NCBI GenBank assembly: GCA_963793865.1
Contig: CAWCBP010000008.1
Span: 288,001-352,000 of the forward strand
Source of the DNA: an uncultured delta proteobacterium
GTDB lineage: Bacteria; Desulfobacterota; WTBG01
DNA length: 64,000 nt
Direction of reading: 5' to 3'
Shown: piece after piece, positions 18,001-36,000 of the stretch
Position numbering within the stretch: position 1 is the first letter of the stretch
Layout of the letters: each line of letters begins with the position of its first letter
Made by a program: the position numbers

Positions 18001-21000
18001 AAAGGCGATCTGCCAGCATCCCGCCTTTTTGATCAGCCCGAAAAGATCCACCGAGGTTACTTCAGGCCTGGCAAGGCAGGACCAGCTGATGGTATAATCT
18101 TTTTTGAGCAGCGCTTCGCAGATTGCCGTCACCCGCTTTTTATCAAGCAGGAAATTGTCGTCGTAGAACATGATGTCCTTGATTCCGTACACTTTGACCA
18201 GGTGGTCCACCATGCCGACCGTATACTCGGCGCTGTGCGCCCGGTATTTTTCCCCCATAAAGGGCCGCGCGCAAAAGGTGCAGGTGCCGTTGCACCCCCG
18301 CGAACTCATCAGGGATGAGGAAGGAAGCCGCCGGTAGCTGTGCGGCGAAGGCTTGTAATGCTTTGCCAGGTCGGGCAGGAGATCCCAGGCGGGAAAAGGA
18401 AGCGCGTCCAGGTCCTGTATGTTGTCTCTGCGGGGTGAGAGCTTAATCTCCCCTCCCTCCCGGTATACAATGCCGGGGATGGAACGGAGGCCGCTTCCCG
18501 CTTTGAGCGCGGCAAGGATATCGCAAACCGTGTATTCGCCCTCGTTGATTACCCCCATGTCAAATTCGGGACACTCTTCCAGCGTCTCACGGGGCAGCGA
18601 GGAAACGTGGGGCCCGCCGAGGATCAGGGGGGCCGGTATCCCGCTTTGCCTGATGGCCTTTGCCAGCTCGAGGGCCCGGTTCAGGGACACGGTAGAGGCG
18701 GTGATGCCGATGGCATCGGCGCCGGCACGGGTTATTTCCGCAACCGTTCGGGCGAGATCAAGAGAAAGCGCGGGGGCGTCAACGATACTGACCGTGTAGC
18801 CCTGCTTCCGGGCGGATGATGCCAGGTAGCAGAGGCCGAGGGGCGGCGCCTGGCTTCCCACGGATGCAAAGCTTCCATAGCGCTCCTCCAGTGTAATGGG
18901 CGGATTAACCAGCAAGAGATCATGCTTCATGATCGACATTGTAACACAGGTAACGAAGCTTTCACAAGGATTGATTGCCCGCGGTGCATAAGAAAAGAGG
19001 ATGGATGATTCGCGGCTGAAGCCGCTCCTAACGGATCATCGCAGATGTGTAGATAATATAAAATGATTATTTATAATTAAAACGGGTTTATAAATATCCA
19101 TATTTCTTATGATTGTTGGTGAACAGAAGAAGGGGTGGTATTTTGAGTTTTATAATATAAAAATATTGAAATAATCCTTGACATTTTTCGGCAATTGTGG
19201 TTAAATTGATAATAAAAGAAATTCATATTTGAAAAATAGAAAATATATTTATACGCTTTGATGTAAATAGCAATGATTAGATGCCACTTAGATACACAAA
19301 ATGATGGTTTTCCTGTCCATGTTTCTTGTAATATAATAAATTCTGTGCGGAGAAAAAAACACTTGACAAGATGTGAATAATATAATGTAATATGTAGGCG
19401 GAAGGTTGTTATGTTTCTTGCGAGTGATGGTAGCCTTATTTTAATCAGTTGGGTGCTTGTCATGCTCACCATCGTCATAAAGCAGACTTATAAAACCGGA
19501 GCATTATTTGGAGCGGCTAAAGCAGCATTGTCACCTAGACGCCGTTTCAGATAAAGGGCCGGTTTTTTTTGGTTGACGATAGTATCAAAACATAATAAAG
19601 GTACTGGAGCAGAACAGGCAAGCTTAGTGCACTAATCGAAAGGGCAAACCCCGGGCAACCGGGGGACGCAAAGCTACGATCCCCTCAGGGGAAGTCGGGT
19701 TGCTGAAATTAGCGCACTGCTTGAAAAAGAGCAACCCGGTTTTTTTATTGTCTCAGAGTGAGGGGGCATGAATGGAAGGAGGTGATGCGGAAAGCCATAC
19801 GAAATGAAAGAGAGGTGATATTTGTAGTTAAGCCACAGAAGCAAAGAAGATGCAGCAGCAGTACAACAGTATCAAGCAAGAAATCGCGATTTCAGTAAGT
19901 TTATGTTTTTAGTTCGATCATCAAATAATTTGATCAGCAAAGAAATGGAGGAGAAGAAATGAAGAAATATATTGTATGTTTGATAGGCCTGGTGATGGCT
20001 CTCGGTTTTATCGGGATGTCATCAGCGGCCATCGTGACCGATCCAACCGGTGATAAATTTGGCAGCGGCCCCACCGATATTACCGCAGCACGGGCTGAAC
20101 AGGAGACAAGGACTGACGGGGTTACTGTACTGAAAGTTTCCTATACCGCCACACCCAACATCGGCGGCATCATGTTATTTGAAGCCGATGTTGATAGCAA
20201 CACCGTTACGGGCGGAAATATAAGCATGACCGGTATCCCGGTTTTACCCTGCCCCTGCAAGTCAACCCCTGGTATCGATGTGGCGATCATGGTGATGAAC
20301 AGAGACCAAGCGGCAACTTCCAACTCTGCCATGTGTGCAGGCTGTTCTGATTCTGGGTCTGCTTCATGTGCCAGGAAGCGGTGGTATGGTGAGTGGTATG
20401 CGGTGGCATCAGGAACGGGAACCACGGACACAACCGGCTTCATGAGGGGTTTTCTGGATCCCACCACCTTTTATTCGACCATCACCAGTAAGAGCTACAC
20501 CTTCCCCTGGGATACGATCTGTGCTTCGTGCAAATTATGAGATTCCCGTGCCGTGAGCAATATGTCTATGCCGATGCCATTAATCCAGCCCTCACCAAAT
20601 GGCAGCTGAGTGTGTGGACCGATCCGAGCTTTGCTGATCGAGGATGACTTTGCCAATGGCTCAAGCTTCTTCGGCATTTCCGACGTGATTCCCAACGGCA
20701 ATGGCAATCTGGTTGCCGGTGTGGATGTTGCTACTAACCTTACCTTCTGCGAAGGGAATTTTGACAATGACCCGGACGTGGACGGAGGTGATGCCTCCAA
20801 ATTCAAGACCGACTTCGGAAGGAGTGGCTTGAAGAATCCGTGTCCGAATACACCCTGGTTATATTAATCTTTTCCCCCGCCCGGTCTTGTCAACGGGAGC
20901 GGGCGGGGCATAATTACAATGAACCCAGAAGTATAGGTTATATCTTAACTCGAAAGGGGGTGATGGTCAAAAAAAGGATAGTTTCAGGAAAGGAGGTGAT

Positions 21001-33000: not shown

Positions 33001-36000
33001 GTGCAATACCGGGGTATGCGACGAAGCTTCCGATCAATGTGTGTCCCAGCCGGTGCTGGACGGTACGCCCTGCAATGACGGCCTCTTCTGCACGCTCACC
33101 GACGGGTGCCAGGACGGTCAGTGCCTGGGGACGGGTGAGACCTGCCCGGATGATGCAAATGCCTGCACTGACAACTGTGATGAGGTGCGGGATGTCTGCT
33201 ACCCTGCAATGCGACCGGTTCCTCCGATCCCTGCTGCGAAGATTCTGTCTGTGCCAGTGAGGAGATTTGCCTGGTTGTCATAAACGAATTCTACGTTGAT
33301 GGGACGGACGGGAGCAACACGAACGATGGTCTGTCTCCCGCAACTGCCTGGAAGACCATCACCTATGCGTTAAGCCGGGTGCCGGTGCTGATCACCCTGG
33401 GAGAAAATAATCGCGCCCTGGTGCATGTTGCCCCGTCGCTCTATGATACGGTCATGGGAGGAGGAGACGCCGAGACATTTCCCCTGATCATGAAGAAGTA
33501 CCTCTCACTGGTCGGTGACGGGGGATACAGCGGAACCATCATAGATGCCGACCGGACCGGCGGCGTCATTGAGTTTGCCAAGGAGGATGCATCCGGCTCC
33601 ACCATTGCCATAGAGGGCTTTACCATCACCGGGGGCTCCAATTTCAGGGGCGGGGGGATTACGGTGCTCTGGGCTGACCCCTCAATCAGGCGCTGCCTGA
33701 TCACCGGCAACATTTCCACTGACATCAACGGCGGGGGCATTTACCTCCAGCGTTCAAACGCCGCCATAACCGACTGTATTATTTCGAACAACACCGCACC
33801 GCAACAAAACGGCGGCGGTATTTCCTGCGGCAACATGTCAAGCCCCGCCATCGTCAACTGTACCATTGTTAATAATGGTGCCGGGTGCGGTTCGGAAGAG
33901 GGCGGAGGCGGGGTGTATGCCGGGTACGATTGCTTTCCCCGGCTCATCAACTGCATACTCTGGGACAATTACCGGGACTGCTCTCCCGCCCCCGTTCCCG
34001 ACCAGATAAAGGCGGTGGAAAACATTGCGGTCAGCTACAGCTGTGTCCGGGACGGATTTGCAGGCATCGGTAATACCGCCGTGGACCCTGCCTTTTTCGG
34101 AGGGGAGTATTTCCTCTCCTACGGATCCCCCTGCATTGATTCGGGAACGAGTGACGGGGCAACCTTCACAGATATCGACGGAAACGGACGCTATGATCAC
34201 CTGGCCACCCCCGACACGGGCGGCGGATCGTCTCCATTCTTCGATATCGGAGCGCGCGAATATCAGAATGATACAGACGCTGATGGTGTTCCGGATGATG
34301 GAGATGAAGGCGGGACGGTGGGGGATAATCCCTGCACGGGCGGAGCGACCACAGGCTGTGATGACAACTGCATAAGCATTCCCAACCCCGCGCAGGAAGA
34401 CGGCGAAGGGGACGGCGCGGGGGATGTGTGTGACAACTGCCCGCTGTATCCCAACGGAATCATCCTCGGGACATGCCTGAAGCGGCAGAGCGCTGAAGTG
34501 ATTTTTGTATCTCCTTTGAGCTGCACCCGGGACGCTGATTGCGGCAGCCCCAATCTGCTCTGCGATAACGATCAGCTTGACGCCAACGCCAACGGGATAG
34601 GGGATGTCTGCCAGTGTGAGTTTGATTTCGACTGCGACGGCGATGTGGATGGCACCGACGCGGTTGTCTTCAAGGCGGATTTTGGAAGGAATGCCTTGAG
34701 CAGACCCTGCACCGTTGCCGATCCCTGCATTGCCGATTATGACGGGGACGGGGATGTTGACGGCACGGACGCGGTAAAATTCAAGGAGGATTTCGGCAGG
34801 AACGATATTAATAAGCCCTGCGCTTCCTGCTACGGCGAATAGCAGCGAGCTTTGTGCGCAGGTGAAGGCCATCTGTGATATAAATCAGCCGGGCGCATAA
34901 GGCCCGGCTGATTTATGCGCATAGACGGGTGCTTGTCATCCCGTGAAAGGGCGCATGGCGGCAGATAATCATCTCTTTATGGCCCCCGCCCCGGTTAAAA
35001 ACTAATTGCAATTCGGGGCCGCTTTGGCATATTCTGCACGCTGTAACTCAAACCAGATCCGAGACGGCAGAGGCGGCATGCGGTTGAAGCAATTTCTGAG
35101 GATAGCCCTTTTTCTCCTGGCGGTAAGTTTTCTGACGGAAAGCCTGGGCTATCTCACCCATGAGATGTACCAGTACCTGGGAGTGGCACTGCTGGTCCTG
35201 TACGGGTTGAGCATTTTTCCCGGCGGCCAAAAAACCGGGAAAGCGGCACTCTTCTTTTCAGGCTGTCTGCTTATTACGCTCTCCTTTTTCTTCCTGAGCG
35301 GACCGATCCTTCCCCGGCTCGCCGGAACAGCGCTGTTCATCTTCGCGCTTATGCTTGTGGTGGAAAGCAGGAATGGGGAGCAGCGGGAGCTGCCGCTGCT
35401 CCTGGCTTCTGCGGTACTCTCCTCTGCTTTCTTTCTGCTGTACCTGTGTTCTCCGCCCTTCTGGTACGGGAGTAAACAGCTGTCCCTTTCCTTTTCCTCC
35501 CTGGTCAGCGGGGTGAGCGGCCTCCCCATTCTCTATTCCGCAACCTTCCTGGGTTTGCCGCTGACGGCCATCTTCCTGTCCGTCATGCTTCCCGCGTTTT
35601 TTCGAAGCGACAGCAGGAAGCGCCTTCTGTTTTGTCTTTCCCTCATCTCCCTGCCGGTGTTAAGCGGCCTCTACCTTGTAATCATGGGATATCTGCCCCG
35701 GCCGGGAAGAGCCCTTCTGGGGCTGTTCCCTGATGATACCGGTTTTTTCAATCTTCTGCTAACCTTTCTCTTCGATTCAAGCTCACCGCTCCCGCGCTGC
35801 AATTACCAGATGAATGCGCCGCTGGTTCTCTTCTTGCTCTACCTGGTTCCCCTGTATCTCATCTGCCGGGGACAAGGTGCAGCGGAGGCCGGCCCTGCTG
35901 TAAAACCGGGGAGGAAGAGAAACGCGCTTGCCTTCTTCCTGCTCATCATCCTGGCGACGGCGGCCCTGGTGACCGATATGCCCGGGACCCCTTCCGATAA

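Follow-up and report, generated by a model that had tools for sequence, protein, structure and literature searches.

A c-di-GMP-I riboswitch-led operon and a candidate non-cellulolytic cohesin-dockerin surface system in an uncultured delta proteobacterium

In cellulosomes, the dockerins that enzymes bear are mostly C-terminal. Non-cellulosomal cohesin-dockerin systems have already been published, including from syntrophic sulfate reducers and ANME archaea (PMC10553843, PMC9012536), and many non-cellulosomal dockerin-like modules are known that have no proven cohesin partner (review cited in PMC9012536).

Here, we describe a 64,000-nucleotide stretch (the window; positions below count from its first letter) of an uncultured delta proteobacterium. 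The genome encodes ~70 exported proteins with a dockerin-like module together with cohesins and a c-di-GMP riboswitch and thus looks like a non-cellulose version of the cellulosome kit: it resembles the cellulosome in its dockerin-tagged proteins and cohesin scaffolds, but would be non-cellulolytic. We favour, with some confidence, a signal-controlled, multi-tier, non-cellulolytic cohesin-dockerin surface system in a sulfate-reducer-type bacterium. The genome-wide survey's note had proposed a cellulosome-like assembly, which gains from the cohesin candidates, the anchors and the recurrence of the riboswitch in five of five relatives described below; by contrast, its description as a "new, non-cellulolytic docking system" was overstated because such systems are in print (PMC10553843, PMC9012536).

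A dockerin-like module on exported proteins

Using an HMM trained on repeats of this genome and counting stop-to-stop ORFs (ORF pieces), we detected the module in 73 ORFs of the whole genome with 135 repeat matches; at i-E<1e-5, 60 ORFs contained two repeats and 13 contained one. The survey had listed 68 module proteins, 48 with a C-terminal module, in agreement with our 73 ORFs and 50 C-terminal double modules; the counts differ because ORF pieces were counted and several genes are broken. A crude signal-peptide test was passed by 38 of the 73 ORF pieces, and many of the remainder are fragments. The exported proteins with the module include peptidases, beta-propellers, beta-helix, Lcl_C, rhodanese and other proteins, and a TSP3-like calcium-binding piece nearly always precedes it.

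Each repeat carries a calcium loop of 12 residues; across 127 repeats, its consensus has D/N, D/N/S, D, D, D and D at positions 1, 3, 5, 7, 9 and 12 and Val at position 8, followed by A-x-x-F-K-x-D-F-G-R; a Cys is found before the loop in 100% and after the helix in 99% of the repeats, while the helix K and R are present in 97% and 99%, respectively. This near-invariance would fit one shared protein-binding face. Pfam Dockerin_1, searched against the whole genome at E up to 1, gave 30 matches, 29 of them on the module; 22 of the 29 span at least positions 7-49 of 57 and three are partial. Most single matches lie below the cut-off (for the module at 34612-34830, E 4.4e-4 and 20.8 bits vs 22.9), nine reach it once summed in frame, and protein P0020 of a relative passes it outright with 26.9 bits. 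When the module profile was compared with the PDB, the first match was the dockerin 2y3n_B (E 0.18) with both repeats in register, and dockerins made up six of the 11 among the matches listed. The AF2 model of the module is of middling quality (pLDDT 66.9) and has two helices; with this model, the top 12 Foldseek rows were dockerins (best probability 0.96, E 0.08), and in a fold search without Foldseek (VIA) over 48,161 chains, 13 of the 17 chains at Z>=2 contained dockerins, among them the 11 highest-scoring ones (best Z 5.5). Each single match is weak. In total, and in line with the survey's description of the module as dockerin-like, we conclude that by sequence and predicted fold it is a divergent, disulfide-rich dockerin. 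The ~86-96-aa module would comprise two F-hand calcium loops with helices and a Cys-rich clasp, stapled by disulfides, and would tag ~60-70 exported proteins for non-covalent docking onto cohesins; its function presumably depends on calcium and on the disulfides.

Alternatively, and as the survey had also suggested, the module could be a C-terminal sorting or secretion tag similar to the T9SS CTD or PEP-CTERM, in which case the cohesin-fold proteins would be unrelated adhesins. Consistent with such a tag, 50 of the 60 double modules end no more than 15 aa before the stop, 40 of these 50 end in the conserved W-C-x-Y plus at most four residues, and the locus encodes two large polytopic membrane proteins with DUF4350/ABC_transp_aux (GldG-like) domains (35006..40519, + strand). 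However, the module lies directly behind a signal peptide in nine of the 13 single-repeat ORFs, is N-terminal in four of the 60 doubles and also occurs internally and in tandem, with 11 or more copies arrayed in protein P0001; the 16 single repeats that the survey placed at N-termini are thus reproduced only approximately. Moreover, the module lacks a hydrophobic tail (a maximum of 8 hydrophobic residues per 15 in the last 40 aa), none of the NCBIfam sorting-domain models searched matches it, and a mostly C-terminal position is shared with the enzyme-borne dockerins to which it is akin. We consider a sorting tag very unlikely and retain the dockerin reading.

Cohesin-fold proteins and the gene map of the operon

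The survey had identified no cohesin-like partner; candidates are, however, present. An HMM for one family, A2, detected 19 domains in 16 ORFs of the genome. The A2 domain at 29644-30069 was modelled by AF2 with a pLDDT of 92.8, and with this model Foldseek gave 84 matches at E<=1e-3, all cohesins among the matches listed, with a best E of 5.9e-9 and TM up to 0.77; similarly, the A2 profile matched the cohesin 6kgc_A in the PDB over its full length (E 0.016). Standard Pfam annotation does not call the cohesin-fold domains of the riboswitch-led operon. As judged from these models, the operon encodes cohesin-fold domains. A4, found in 20 ORFs of the genome, is probably its second cohesin family: Pfam Cohesin matches the A4 protein at 47755..48552 with E 0.003, the A4 profile gave only two PDB matches, both cohesins (3ul4_A and 3kcp_A), and 25 of 30 matches in the ESM Atlas belong to the family set of Cohesin clusters. 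Finally, module B, presumed to be a second dockerin-like tail, has two "GD..D..D-helix" repeats read by eye; similarity to solved dockerins was sought and none was detectable, so that its dockerin nature rests on these repeats.

All operon genes are on the + strand. Gene 1 (19959..20864) encodes an exported protein, with a signal peptide, that ends in a single dockerin repeat (20748-20849, module HMM); it has two in-frame stops near 20538 and 20607, while its ortholog in the relative G001 is an intact ORF of 312 aa that aligns in one frame over 19929-20864. Gene 2 (21084..23007) encodes an adaptor with HMM-detected A4-type (21214-21612) and A2-type (22264-22686) domains and module B (22669-23004); in this assembly its reading frame shifts at least four times, G001 has an intact ortholog (636 aa), and a single base is missing at 21208 from the contigs of three other public runs and at 21656 and 21680 from those of one run. 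The 212-aa ORF that follows (23314..23952) encodes a signal peptide and a linker rich in Ala, Pro, Glu and Lys; neither a Pfam or NCBIfam match nor a paralog in the genome was found for it. Gene 3 (24101..26498) is scaffoldin-like, with two cohesins (24179-24581 and 25230-25574), each followed by Cys-rich repeats, and then a TSP3-like piece before a double dockerin module (26208-26495); a frameshift near 24316 interrupts the first cohesin, contigs of two runs lack one base at 24316, and the G001 ortholog is intact (798 aa). Thus, three genes are broken in this assembly and intact in relatives and other runs. Gene 4 (27177..29336) encodes, close to the N-terminus, a double dockerin module (27471-27686), followed by a Thr-rich linker, an A2-type domain (28614-29024) and module B (29010-29333). 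Gene 5 (29554..31707), a candidate anchoring scaffoldin, has a signal peptide, a cohesin (29644-30069), Cys-rich "DGLYCNG" repeats, a second cohesin (30730-31131) and, at the C-terminus, a CFI-box-like domain (~31342-31515; NF041770, 32.6 bits, under the cut-off of 40).

Besides this CFI-box-like tail, the predicted anchor signals of cohesin proteins include a lipobox (LTSC), an IPTLSEWG motif with a TM tail, and a TM segment with an RKRK tail. Judged by such motifs, some cohesin proteins carry cell-surface anchors. We propose that cohesins from the same loci, some of them held at the surface by lipobox, C-terminal membrane anchor or CFI-box, would receive the module-bearing proteins, while other cohesin proteins would pair a cohesin with a module B tail, as adaptor scaffoldins do; together, these tiers would make up a cellulosome-like but non-cellulolytic system at the cell surface, for display or as a matrix. 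We infer the binding between cohesins and module, and the pairing of their classes.

A c-di-GMP-I riboswitch ahead of the operon

The operon is preceded by a c-di-GMP-I (GEMM-I) class aptamer (19634..19708, + strand; Rfam RF01051, 66.5 bits vs a cut-off of 35; RF03167, 61 bits vs a gathering score of 59). By sequence and MFE fold, the expression platform (19695..19746, + strand) is a terminator stem formed by 19695-19704 and 19730-19739, with T7 (19740-19746) behind it. The 5' arm of the stem lies inside the aptamer and is common to its 3' strand, which suggests an ON switch: because terminator and aptamer compete, high c-di-GMP should permit read-through. The core scaffold operon (19.6-32.0 kb) would then be expressed at high c-di-GMP, and the switch may couple the assembly to a sessile or biofilm state, its presumed biological setting.

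Downstream of the leader, the first strong terminator detected is an intrinsic terminator-like hairpin of 13 pairs followed by a T-run (31935..31964, + strand). The riboswitch-led unit probably ends there. Of the survey's span of 19633..34842, the genes at 32085-34842 then probably form a separate unit.

An Rfam search detected eight c-di-GMP-I riboswitches in the genome, each with a stem and U-run downstream. As the survey had noted, five of the eight precede module operons: on the same strand, a module ORF follows at a distance of 157-3818 nt; random positions have a same-strand module ORF within 4 kb in 2.9% of cases (binomial P ~1e-6 for five of eight), a cut of 4 kb that was picked after the data had been seen. 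The link between riboswitch and operon could be incidental, with only the first small gene regulated, or the ligand could be another one, as in GGC-class or cGAMP-type GEMM-I variants. This would accord with operon membership read from position only, with the four aptamers that also pass the cut-off of RF03167 (the "GGC" variant family), and with the compensatory GC-to-CG swap and long insertion common to seven of the eight. By contrast, all eight score 53-66 bits with RF01051 (cut-off 35) and have a G before the first conserved pair, which we take to be the c-di-GMP-type G20 of the Vc2 structure rather than the A of cGAMP switches. Moreover, the stretch up to 31935, in which no strong terminator was detected, and the riboswitch-scaffold order retained in three further genomes (below) speak against an incidental link, to which we give little credence. 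We favour c-di-GMP as the ligand on the strength of the aptamer sequences.

Conservation in relatives and further genes of the window

Among 40 relatives (41 genomes including G000), the module is present in eight, the A2 cohesin in seven and module B in seven. Module and A2 cohesin occur together in six (G001-G003, G005, G008 and G037), five of which (all except G008) also have module B; G037 is the only carrier among 16 genomes of another family. In G001 and G002, an orthologous aptamer precedes an orthologous operon, and the order riboswitch, cohesin-module B gene, cohesin-cohesin gene is kept in G001, G003 and G037. A riboswitch precedes cohesin or dockerin genes in all five relatives examined; of their 17 riboswitches, seven have cohesin or module ORFs within 7 kb downstream and ten have none in the stretch inspected, which contig ends shorten in four cases. 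Across the phylum (300 genomes), nine genomes have weak module-like matches and no A2 cohesin, and two (G046 and G288) have the A2 cohesin and no module; at the sensitivity used, the co-occurrence fails outside the family.

These data bear on whether the module could instead be a dockerin-derived, calcium-binding and disulfide-stapled structural or matrix unit that binds polysaccharide, mineral or another non-cohesin target, or stabilises exported proteins, with the cohesins pairing only with module B or something else. The weak matches lacking A2 cohesins outside the family, the TSP3-like piece ahead of the module and the dockerin-like modules with no proven partner (review cited in PMC9012536) agree with such a unit. 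However, module and cohesin co-occur tightly in the family and in G037, and they are fused in one protein in genes 3 and 4, in the C11 cluster and in P0113, whose cohesin is Pfam-positive (Cohesin, 35.1 bits); the conserved helix K and R also fit one shared protein-binding face. We regard a structural unit as unlikely, and docking onto cohesins as the better reading.

Downstream of the operon, the second unit (32085..34842, + strand) encodes three proteins: an A4-type cohesin-like protein (32298-32789), a Cys-rich repeat ORF (32822-33283) and a beta-helix protein (33379-34842) with a TSP3-like piece and a double dockerin module (34612-34830). Further along the + strand lie genes for an exported DsbA-like thiol:disulfide oxidoreductase with a CVHC motif (40818..42407; Thioredoxin_4 E 1.3e-24, DSBA E 7e-17); an exported protein (42768..44678) whose Cys-Pro-rich repeats and TSP3 piece are accompanied by a double dockerin module at the C-terminus (44424-44648); a Thr-rich protein (45033..47176; two overlapping ORFs, probably one gene) that combines an A2-type cohesin (46454-46864) with module B (46850-47173); the exported A4-type protein at 47755..48552, which has a Cys-rich repeat; and an exported protein (50985..52154) with a single A2-type cohesin (51078-51506). 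Two candidate membrane glycosyltransferases, PMT_2/TMTC-like (52316..56569, + strand; weak PMT_2/TMTC and strong TPR matches), of which the second has TPR repeats, may add O-glycans to the Thr-rich linkers. Finally, the - strand encodes a protein (57934..59169) that combines an STN-like piece and HEAT repeats with an A4-type cohesin-like domain at its C-terminus (57943-58359), and a PQQ_2 beta-propeller (59492..61816) that has a TSP3 piece and a double dockerin module at its C-terminus (59519-59737).

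The Cys-rich module and its probable kinship to dockerins

We searched the genome under study (3.85 Mb in 14 contigs) with an HMM of the single repeat, which was built from the genome's own copies, against all stop-to-stop ORFs of at least 40 aa. The repeat was present in 73 ORFs with 135 matches; 60 of these ORFs contain two repeats and 13 contain one. In 50 of the 60 double modules, the module ends no more than 15 aa from the stop codon, and 40 of these 50 have the terminus W-C-x-Y. By a crude test, 38 of the 73 ORF pieces have a signal peptide, and many of the negative pieces are fragments.

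The consensus of 127 aligned repeats is C-x-G-[DN]-F-[DNS]-C-D-x-D-V-D-G-[ST]-D-A-x-x-F-K-x-D-F-G-R-...-P-C. With the first D/N taken as the start of the loop, acidic or amide residues occupy positions 1, 3, 5, 7, 9 and 12, with Val at 8 and Asp at 12. The repeat has the pattern of a 12-residue EF-hand loop in the dockerin-type form followed by a predicted helix. Moreover, this consensus as well as the alignment of the 60 double modules has the tandem loop-helix arrangement of Pfam PF00404 (type I dockerin), in which two segments of about 22 residues each consist of an EF-hand-like calcium loop, with D/N at positions 1, 3, 5, 9 and 12, and a helix, and an AF2 model from 24 sequences, of middling confidence (pLDDT 66.9), has two helices at the places expected for a dockerin. 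The flanking Cys residues are found in 100% and 99% of the 127 repeats and probably staple each loop-helix; the median number of Cys per module is nine.

With E up to 1 allowed, Pfam Dockerin_1 matched the whole genome at 30 places, 29 of them on the module and one on a canonical dockerin. Among the 29 module matches, 22 span positions 7-49 or more of the 57 model positions and three are partial; each scores 12-21.5 bits against a cut-off of 22.9 bits, and nine reach the cut-off only when summed in frame. Modules in the window scored 11.5 and 20.8 bits against the same cut-off. When 83 module-bearing relatives from public protein clusters were scanned, Dockerin_1 matched five at E<1e-3, and one of these, P0020, was above the cut-off (26.9 bits). 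In a search of the module profile against the PDB, the dockerin 2y3n_B came first (E 0.18), in register across both repeats. Similarly, the top 12 Foldseek rows for the AF2 module model are all dockerins, albeit with weak scores (best probability 0.96, E 0.08). In a VIA search of 48,161 representative chains, which is independent of Foldseek, dockerin-containing entries account for 13 of the 17 chains at Z>=2, including the first 11; the top match was PDB 2ozn (Clostridium perfringens NagH-NagJ; Z 5.5, rmsd 2.7 over 62 residues). Each of these lines is weak by itself; together, they make it very likely that the module is related to dockerins.

The genome-wide survey's note had also considered that the module might be a new C-terminal sorting tag. 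We rejected a C-terminal sorting domain of the PEP-CTERM, LPXTG or T9SS CTD type on the basis that the last 40 aa of the 50 C-terminal modules contain no hydrophobic stretch; likewise, no NCBIfam model, sorting-domain models included, matched the module in the three window proteins scanned. The database names of 10 module relatives refer to the catalytic domain only or are "hypothetical protein".

Two proteins outside the main set are of note. At C1:387976-388128, the genome encodes a canonical dockerin outside the Cys-rich family; it lies on an ORF of 299 aa and passes the Pfam cut-off (43.7 bits). P0001, a 1417-aa representative from a different organism with a higher AT content, combines a beta-propeller head with 11 or more modules in tandem; these modules fall between classical dockerins (GDLNCDGKVN..D) and the Cys-rich form.

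Candidate cohesins, protein architectures and cargo

In the whole genome, none of three matches to Pfam Cohesin (PF00963) was above the cut-off of 24.1 bits (best 17.1 bits), and two window proteins matched it at 18.2 and 17.7 bits (E 0.003 and 0.004, both in the domain family that we call A4), also below 24.1 bits. P0113, a module-bearing relative, matched Pfam Cohesin above the cut-off (35.1 bits). An iterated search starting from the repeated domain of gene 5 of the window operon (29554-31707, + strand) defined a further family, A2, which comprises 19 domains spread over 16 ORFs. The AF2 model of A2 has a pLDDT of 92.8 and gave 84 Foldseek matches at E<=1e-3, of which the listed rows are all cohesins (best E 5.9e-9, TM up to 0.77); the A2 profile aligns end to end with the cohesin CaCohA2 (E 0.016). 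As modelled, A2 is a cohesin fold, i.e. a nine-stranded beta-sandwich (jelly-roll) of about 140 aa. A4 is found in 20 ORFs; the only two PDB matches of its profile are cohesins, and in the ESM Atlas 25 of 30 matches are in the family set of Cohesin clusters (score 0.93). On sequence and feature evidence, A4 is a probable cohesin family. The note had held against a docking system that no cohesin-like partner was identified; this objection falls with the candidate partners A2 and A4.

A second Cys-rich C-terminal tail, module B, was found in nine proteins and has two "GD...DG-x-I-D-x-x-D-helix" repeats. It lies directly behind an A2 cohesin in eight of the nine, and its profile gave no meaningful match to solved structures in the PDB. 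From its repeat pattern, module B is presumed to be dockerin-like. Altogether, we conclude that the module is a real and large family of probable, divergent dockerins with newly recognised candidate cohesin partners, to which it is predicted to bind.

In an architecture tally for the whole genome, in which abutting ORF pieces were merged, the module stands by itself on cargo of many kinds (41 double, 7 single), A4 occurs by itself (9), and there are A2 then module B (4) and A2-A2 pairs (3). Also listed are an adaptor type, A4-A2-B, and a module followed by module B. In the window, gene 4 (27177-29336, +) is module-A2-B, and gene 3 (24101-26498, +) was tallied as A2-A2-A2-module and really has two cohesins, one of which is split by a frameshift and was counted twice. 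In a gene cluster on contig C11, single genes begin with A4 and end with the module. Multi-cohesin proteins also occur in relatives, e.g. a 1376-aa ORF of G003 with four cohesins.

Several cohesin proteins have signals suited to anchoring: a lipobox (LTSC) ahead of a single cohesin, IPTLSEWG and a hydrophobic tail behind two cohesins, which we take to be the IPTL-CTERM sorting signal, and a C-terminal membrane helix with RKRK on one cohesin protein. Gene 5 encodes two cohesins and a CFI-box-like tail, which scored 32.6 bits against NF041770 (cut-off 40). A protein of another kind, encoded at 42768-44678 (+), has about 45 short "C-P-x-x-x-T-x" repeats that form a Cys/Pro-rich stalk between a head domain of unknown type and a dockerin module.

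We surveyed cargo in 83 of the 150 best module-bearing representatives, selected for length. Their Pfam matches include peptidases (C1, S8, M14, M19, C25), rhodanese, Lcl_C, PQQ_2 propellers and beta-helix domains as well as metallophosphatases, lectins, LRR, a molybdopterin oxidoreductase and pieces that are cytochrome-like; Glyco_hydro and CBM families were absent from these matches. Likewise, Pfam detected no Glyco_hydro or CBM family in the module and cohesin proteins of the window.

Riboswitches and the window operon

The genome contains eight GEMM-I aptamers, and for five of them a module ORF lies 157-3818 nt downstream on the same strand. By comparison, 2.9% of random positions have a module ORF within 4 kb (P about 1e-6, with the cut-off chosen post hoc). 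Thus, the module family and its association with riboswitches, as described in the survey's note, are both borne out, with 73 ORFs and five of eight aptamers; our counts deviate slightly because ORF pieces are counted here.

The window aptamer (19634-19708, +) is the sole Rfam RNA family in the window (C8:288001-352000). It scores 66.5 bits against RF01051 (gathering threshold 35) and is overlapped by a terminator, as expected for the c-di-GMP-I class; it also scores 61 bits against RF03167, the "GGC" variant family, whose cut-off is passed by four of the eight aptamers including this one. A search by title and abstract outside subscription journals found no paper on the ligand of c-di-GMP-I-GGC. 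Nucleotides 19695-19704, which form the 3' strand of the aptamer, can alternatively pair with 19730-19739, just ahead of a T7 run. Because this terminator stem takes up the 3' strand of the aptamer, binding of the ligand would prevent termination, and we infer an ON switch. A stem and a U-run are present behind all eight aptamers.

The window aptamer has the usual GGC...GC pairing and is the only short, canonical-looking one of the eight. The other seven (C1:726944, C6:74768, C1:1178586, C4:262312, C4:271666, C1:1209099 and C6:81694) form a subtype, in which a compensatory swap gives GCC...ACGG in place of GGC...ACGC and the second hairpin contains 30-45 inserted nucleotides. In all eight, a G precedes the first conserved pair; going by the Vc2 structure, we take this G to mark a c-di-GMP-type rather than a cGAMP-type switch. 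The window aptamer is presumed to respond to c-di-GMP, its predicted ligand.

The operon behind it, on the + strand, encodes a small exported protein ending in one repeat (gene 1, 19959-20864), three large Cys-rich proteins (gene 2, 21084-23007, and genes 3 and 4) and the large protein with the CFI-box-like end; a strong terminator-like hairpin (31935-31964, +) follows this fourth large protein. The other riboswitch-led units with modules encode a cohesin-module B adaptor together with a module-module B protein, single-repeat proteins, one of them with CARDB and Lcl_C, and a TSP3-module protein. Module-free riboswitch-led units encode a PAS sensor kinase and two T2SSE (PilB/PilT-like) ATPases (C6:74768-80013), a CBAH hydrolase and a LolA-like protein, and a TPR protein. 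The c-di-GMP riboswitches of this genome may also govern pilus-type machinery.

Genes similar to those of the operon extend to about 56.6 kb, and further ones lie on the - strand at 57.9-61.8 kb. In addition, an oxidoreductase of the DsbA-like type is encoded at 40818-42407 (+); it is exported, has a CVHC site and two N-terminal repeat domains, and its putative function fits the Cys-rich modules of the locus. This gene lies mid-locus among Cys-rich cohesin and dockerin genes in a presumed strict anaerobe. Two candidate membrane glycosyltransferases of the PMT_2/TMTC-like type, one with many TPR repeats, are encoded at 52316-53635 and 54269-56569 (both +) and may carry out a bacterial O-mannosylation-type modification of the neighbouring long Thr-rich linkers. 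Finally, the genes at 35006-37537 and 37877-40519 (both +) are paralogs that encode proteins of about 850 aa; each protein has numerous membrane helices as well as two DUF4350/GldG-like domains and may serve the system in export or assembly.

Several window genes are broken: two in-frame stops interrupt gene 1, and frame changes occur in gene 2 (at least four) and gene 3 (one). In contigs from other public sequencing runs, which are 90-99% alike, a single base is missing at 21208 (three runs), at 21656 and 21680 (one run) and at 24316 (two runs), and the orthologs of genes 1-3 in the relative G001 are intact (312, 636 and 798 aa). Therefore, assembly errors are the most likely cause of the breaks, which would otherwise be strain-specific at most, in agreement with the caveat on frameshifts that the note had raised. 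At most a quarter of the words sampled were present in any single public run. The contig depth, summed for run X1, rises to 462 at 23799-24045 compared to about 5-15 elsewhere, with many loose contig ends at 23948-24017; a short repeat or mobile piece common to other organisms may lie between the ORF at 23314-23952 and gene 3. Contigs from the metatranscriptome library X16 (90-97% alike) cover 19672-19832, 19933-20165, 21068-21491, 22128-22727 and 23533-23688, which is only a hint of transcription since contigs cannot show it and the library possibly contained DNA.

In G001, the same aptamer (62.7 bits) lies upstream of the intact orthologs of genes 1-3, and in G002 upstream of the gene 1 ortholog. 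In G003 and G037, the riboswitch is followed by genes for cohesin-module B, cohesin and cohesin-cohesin proteins with the order kept. Over all five relatives, each of which has at least one such case, cohesin or module genes lie no more than 7 kb behind seven of 17 above-threshold riboswitches; the other 10 lack such genes in the stretch behind them, and four of those stretches stop early at contig ends. We conclude that a conserved c-di-GMP-class riboswitch precedes the scaffold operon. When 39 loci that surround module genes in other MAGs (289 kb in total) were searched with Rfam, two riboswitches were found, both downstream of the matched gene: the one in locus L034 stands upstream of the next module gene, and behind the one in locus L030 there is no ORF of at least 120 aa within the locus.

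Distribution and comparison with known systems

Among 1.84 billion sequences in public protein clusters, the module profile matched 1656 cluster representatives at E<=1e-3 and 245 at E<=1e-30; the module is mostly C-terminal in these, and one protein has 11 matched stretches. In 40 relatives (41 genomes with the one under study), the module was present in eight, the A2 cohesin in seven and module B in seven. Module and A2 occur together in six (G001-G003, G005, G008 and G037), and both together with module B in five (G001-G003, G005 and G037). G037 belongs to another family, in which it alone of the 16 genomes searched has these parts. The case that the parts function together depends chiefly, though indirectly, on this co-occurrence, which amounts to about two lineages because kin are not independent. 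In 300 genomes from across the phylum, weak module-like matches were found in nine and the A2 cohesin in two, with no overlap; thus, the strong form is lineage-restricted and the co-occurrence argument reaches no further.

Several features resemble the type I cellulosome pairs of Clostridium thermocellum and C. cellulolyticum (PDB 1ohz, 2vn5, 2ccl): the dockerin is a duplicated loop-helix and mostly C-terminal, a dockerin-type module is found on about 70 exported proteins, cohesin beta-sandwiches are present on multi-cohesin and anchored proteins, linkers are Thr-rich and, as in adaptor scaffoldins, cohesin and dockerin are combined in one protein. Unlike in cellulosomes, the cargo surveyed here is without cellulase or CBM families, the host is a Gram-negative-type member of the Thermodesulfobacteriota, both partners are Cys-rich and usually neither passes Pfam cut-offs, and the system sits behind a riboswitch. 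We rejected a true cellulosome, which is defined by dockerin-borne glycoside hydrolases and a cellulose-binding scaffoldin, as neither cellulases nor CBMs were found by Pfam in the 83 representatives or in the module and cohesin proteins of the window. By analogy, the system is cellulosome-like in parts, i.e. in its putative enzyme-borne dockerins, scaffoldin and adaptor cohesins, and anchors.

Dockerin and cohesin proteins have been described in ANME archaea, syntrophic sulfate-reducing bacteria and Archaeoglobus fulgidus, and the sections of these reports covered here read them as adhesin or matrix proteins (PMC9012536, PMC10553843; PDB 2xdh). As in the present case, the ANME and syntroph hosts are anaerobes of sediments and encode numerous dockerin and cohesin proteins (PMC9012536, PMC10553843); their scaffoldin-like proteins are given with up to five cohesins, compared to four in the G003 ORF. 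Those proteins were, by the same sections, found via standard domain libraries, whereas both partners here are largely invisible to such libraries, and these sections mention no riboswitch control. The "new, non-cellulolytic docking system" proposed in the note is overstated in that, judging by those sections, non-cellulosomal systems of cohesins and dockerins have already been published (PMC9012536, PMC10553843).

Non-cellulosomal use of dockerin and cohesin is also known from C. perfringens NagH-NagJ (PDB 2ozn), where it serves the assembly of secreted enzymes. That system differs in its Gram-positive host and few components and is without Cys-rich staples and a riboswitch. Adhesins are known to lie behind c-di-GMP riboswitches; in Vibrio cholerae, gbpA is an adhesin gene behind the riboswitch Vc1. 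According to the part of the report covered here, a c-di-GMP riboswitch turns on the surface adhesin CD2831 of Clostridioides difficile (PMC6447587). There, a single sortase-anchored adhesin is controlled, whereas here a class I aptamer, presumed to be an ON switch, precedes a whole cohesin-dockerin scaffold operon. In the portion covered of a 2025 review on cellulosomes, "riboswitch-linked dockerins" figure as a mere design concept (PMC12484212). In literature outside subscription journals, we found neither a description of the Cys-rich module nor a riboswitch-led cohesin-dockerin operon.

A bolder reading, which we consider unlikely in its full form, is that of a c-di-GMP-gated, self-assembling cohesin-dockerin matrix of a strict anaerobe with three cohesin and two dockerin classes, disulfides made by a DsbA-like enzyme, and head-to-tail polymers with about 60 plug-in proteins. 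Proteins with an N-terminal cohesin and a C-terminal dockerin, such as those of the C11 cluster and window genes 2-4, would join into head-to-tail fibres or a lattice, into which about 60 enzymes and adhesins would plug. Disulfide staples in all cohesin and dockerin classes would be formed by the DsbA-like enzyme encoded at the locus.

If this matrix exists, it would be a natural "riboswitch-linked dockerin" system. On the plainer reading of a riboswitch-led cohesin-dockerin system, the network would match those of true cellulosome producers in size, in a non-cellulolytic sediment bacterium, and c-di-GMP, a universal biofilm signal, would act through RNA on the very scaffold of the assembly. 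Nearly the whole network escapes standard domain annotation. The cohesin-dockerin pairs may be orthogonal and redox-stabilised and, as such, of possible use in designer protein assemblies, and the profile models of the two modules and two cohesin families can be used to seek such systems in other genomes. In G003, which is of the same genus, we observed 55 module-like matches that are much weaker than those in its sister genomes (best E 1e-12), e.g. C13:214073-214312 and C4:42773-43012; they may reflect a diverged module, match overrun or recoding, and many of them run across one stop codon, often TGA.
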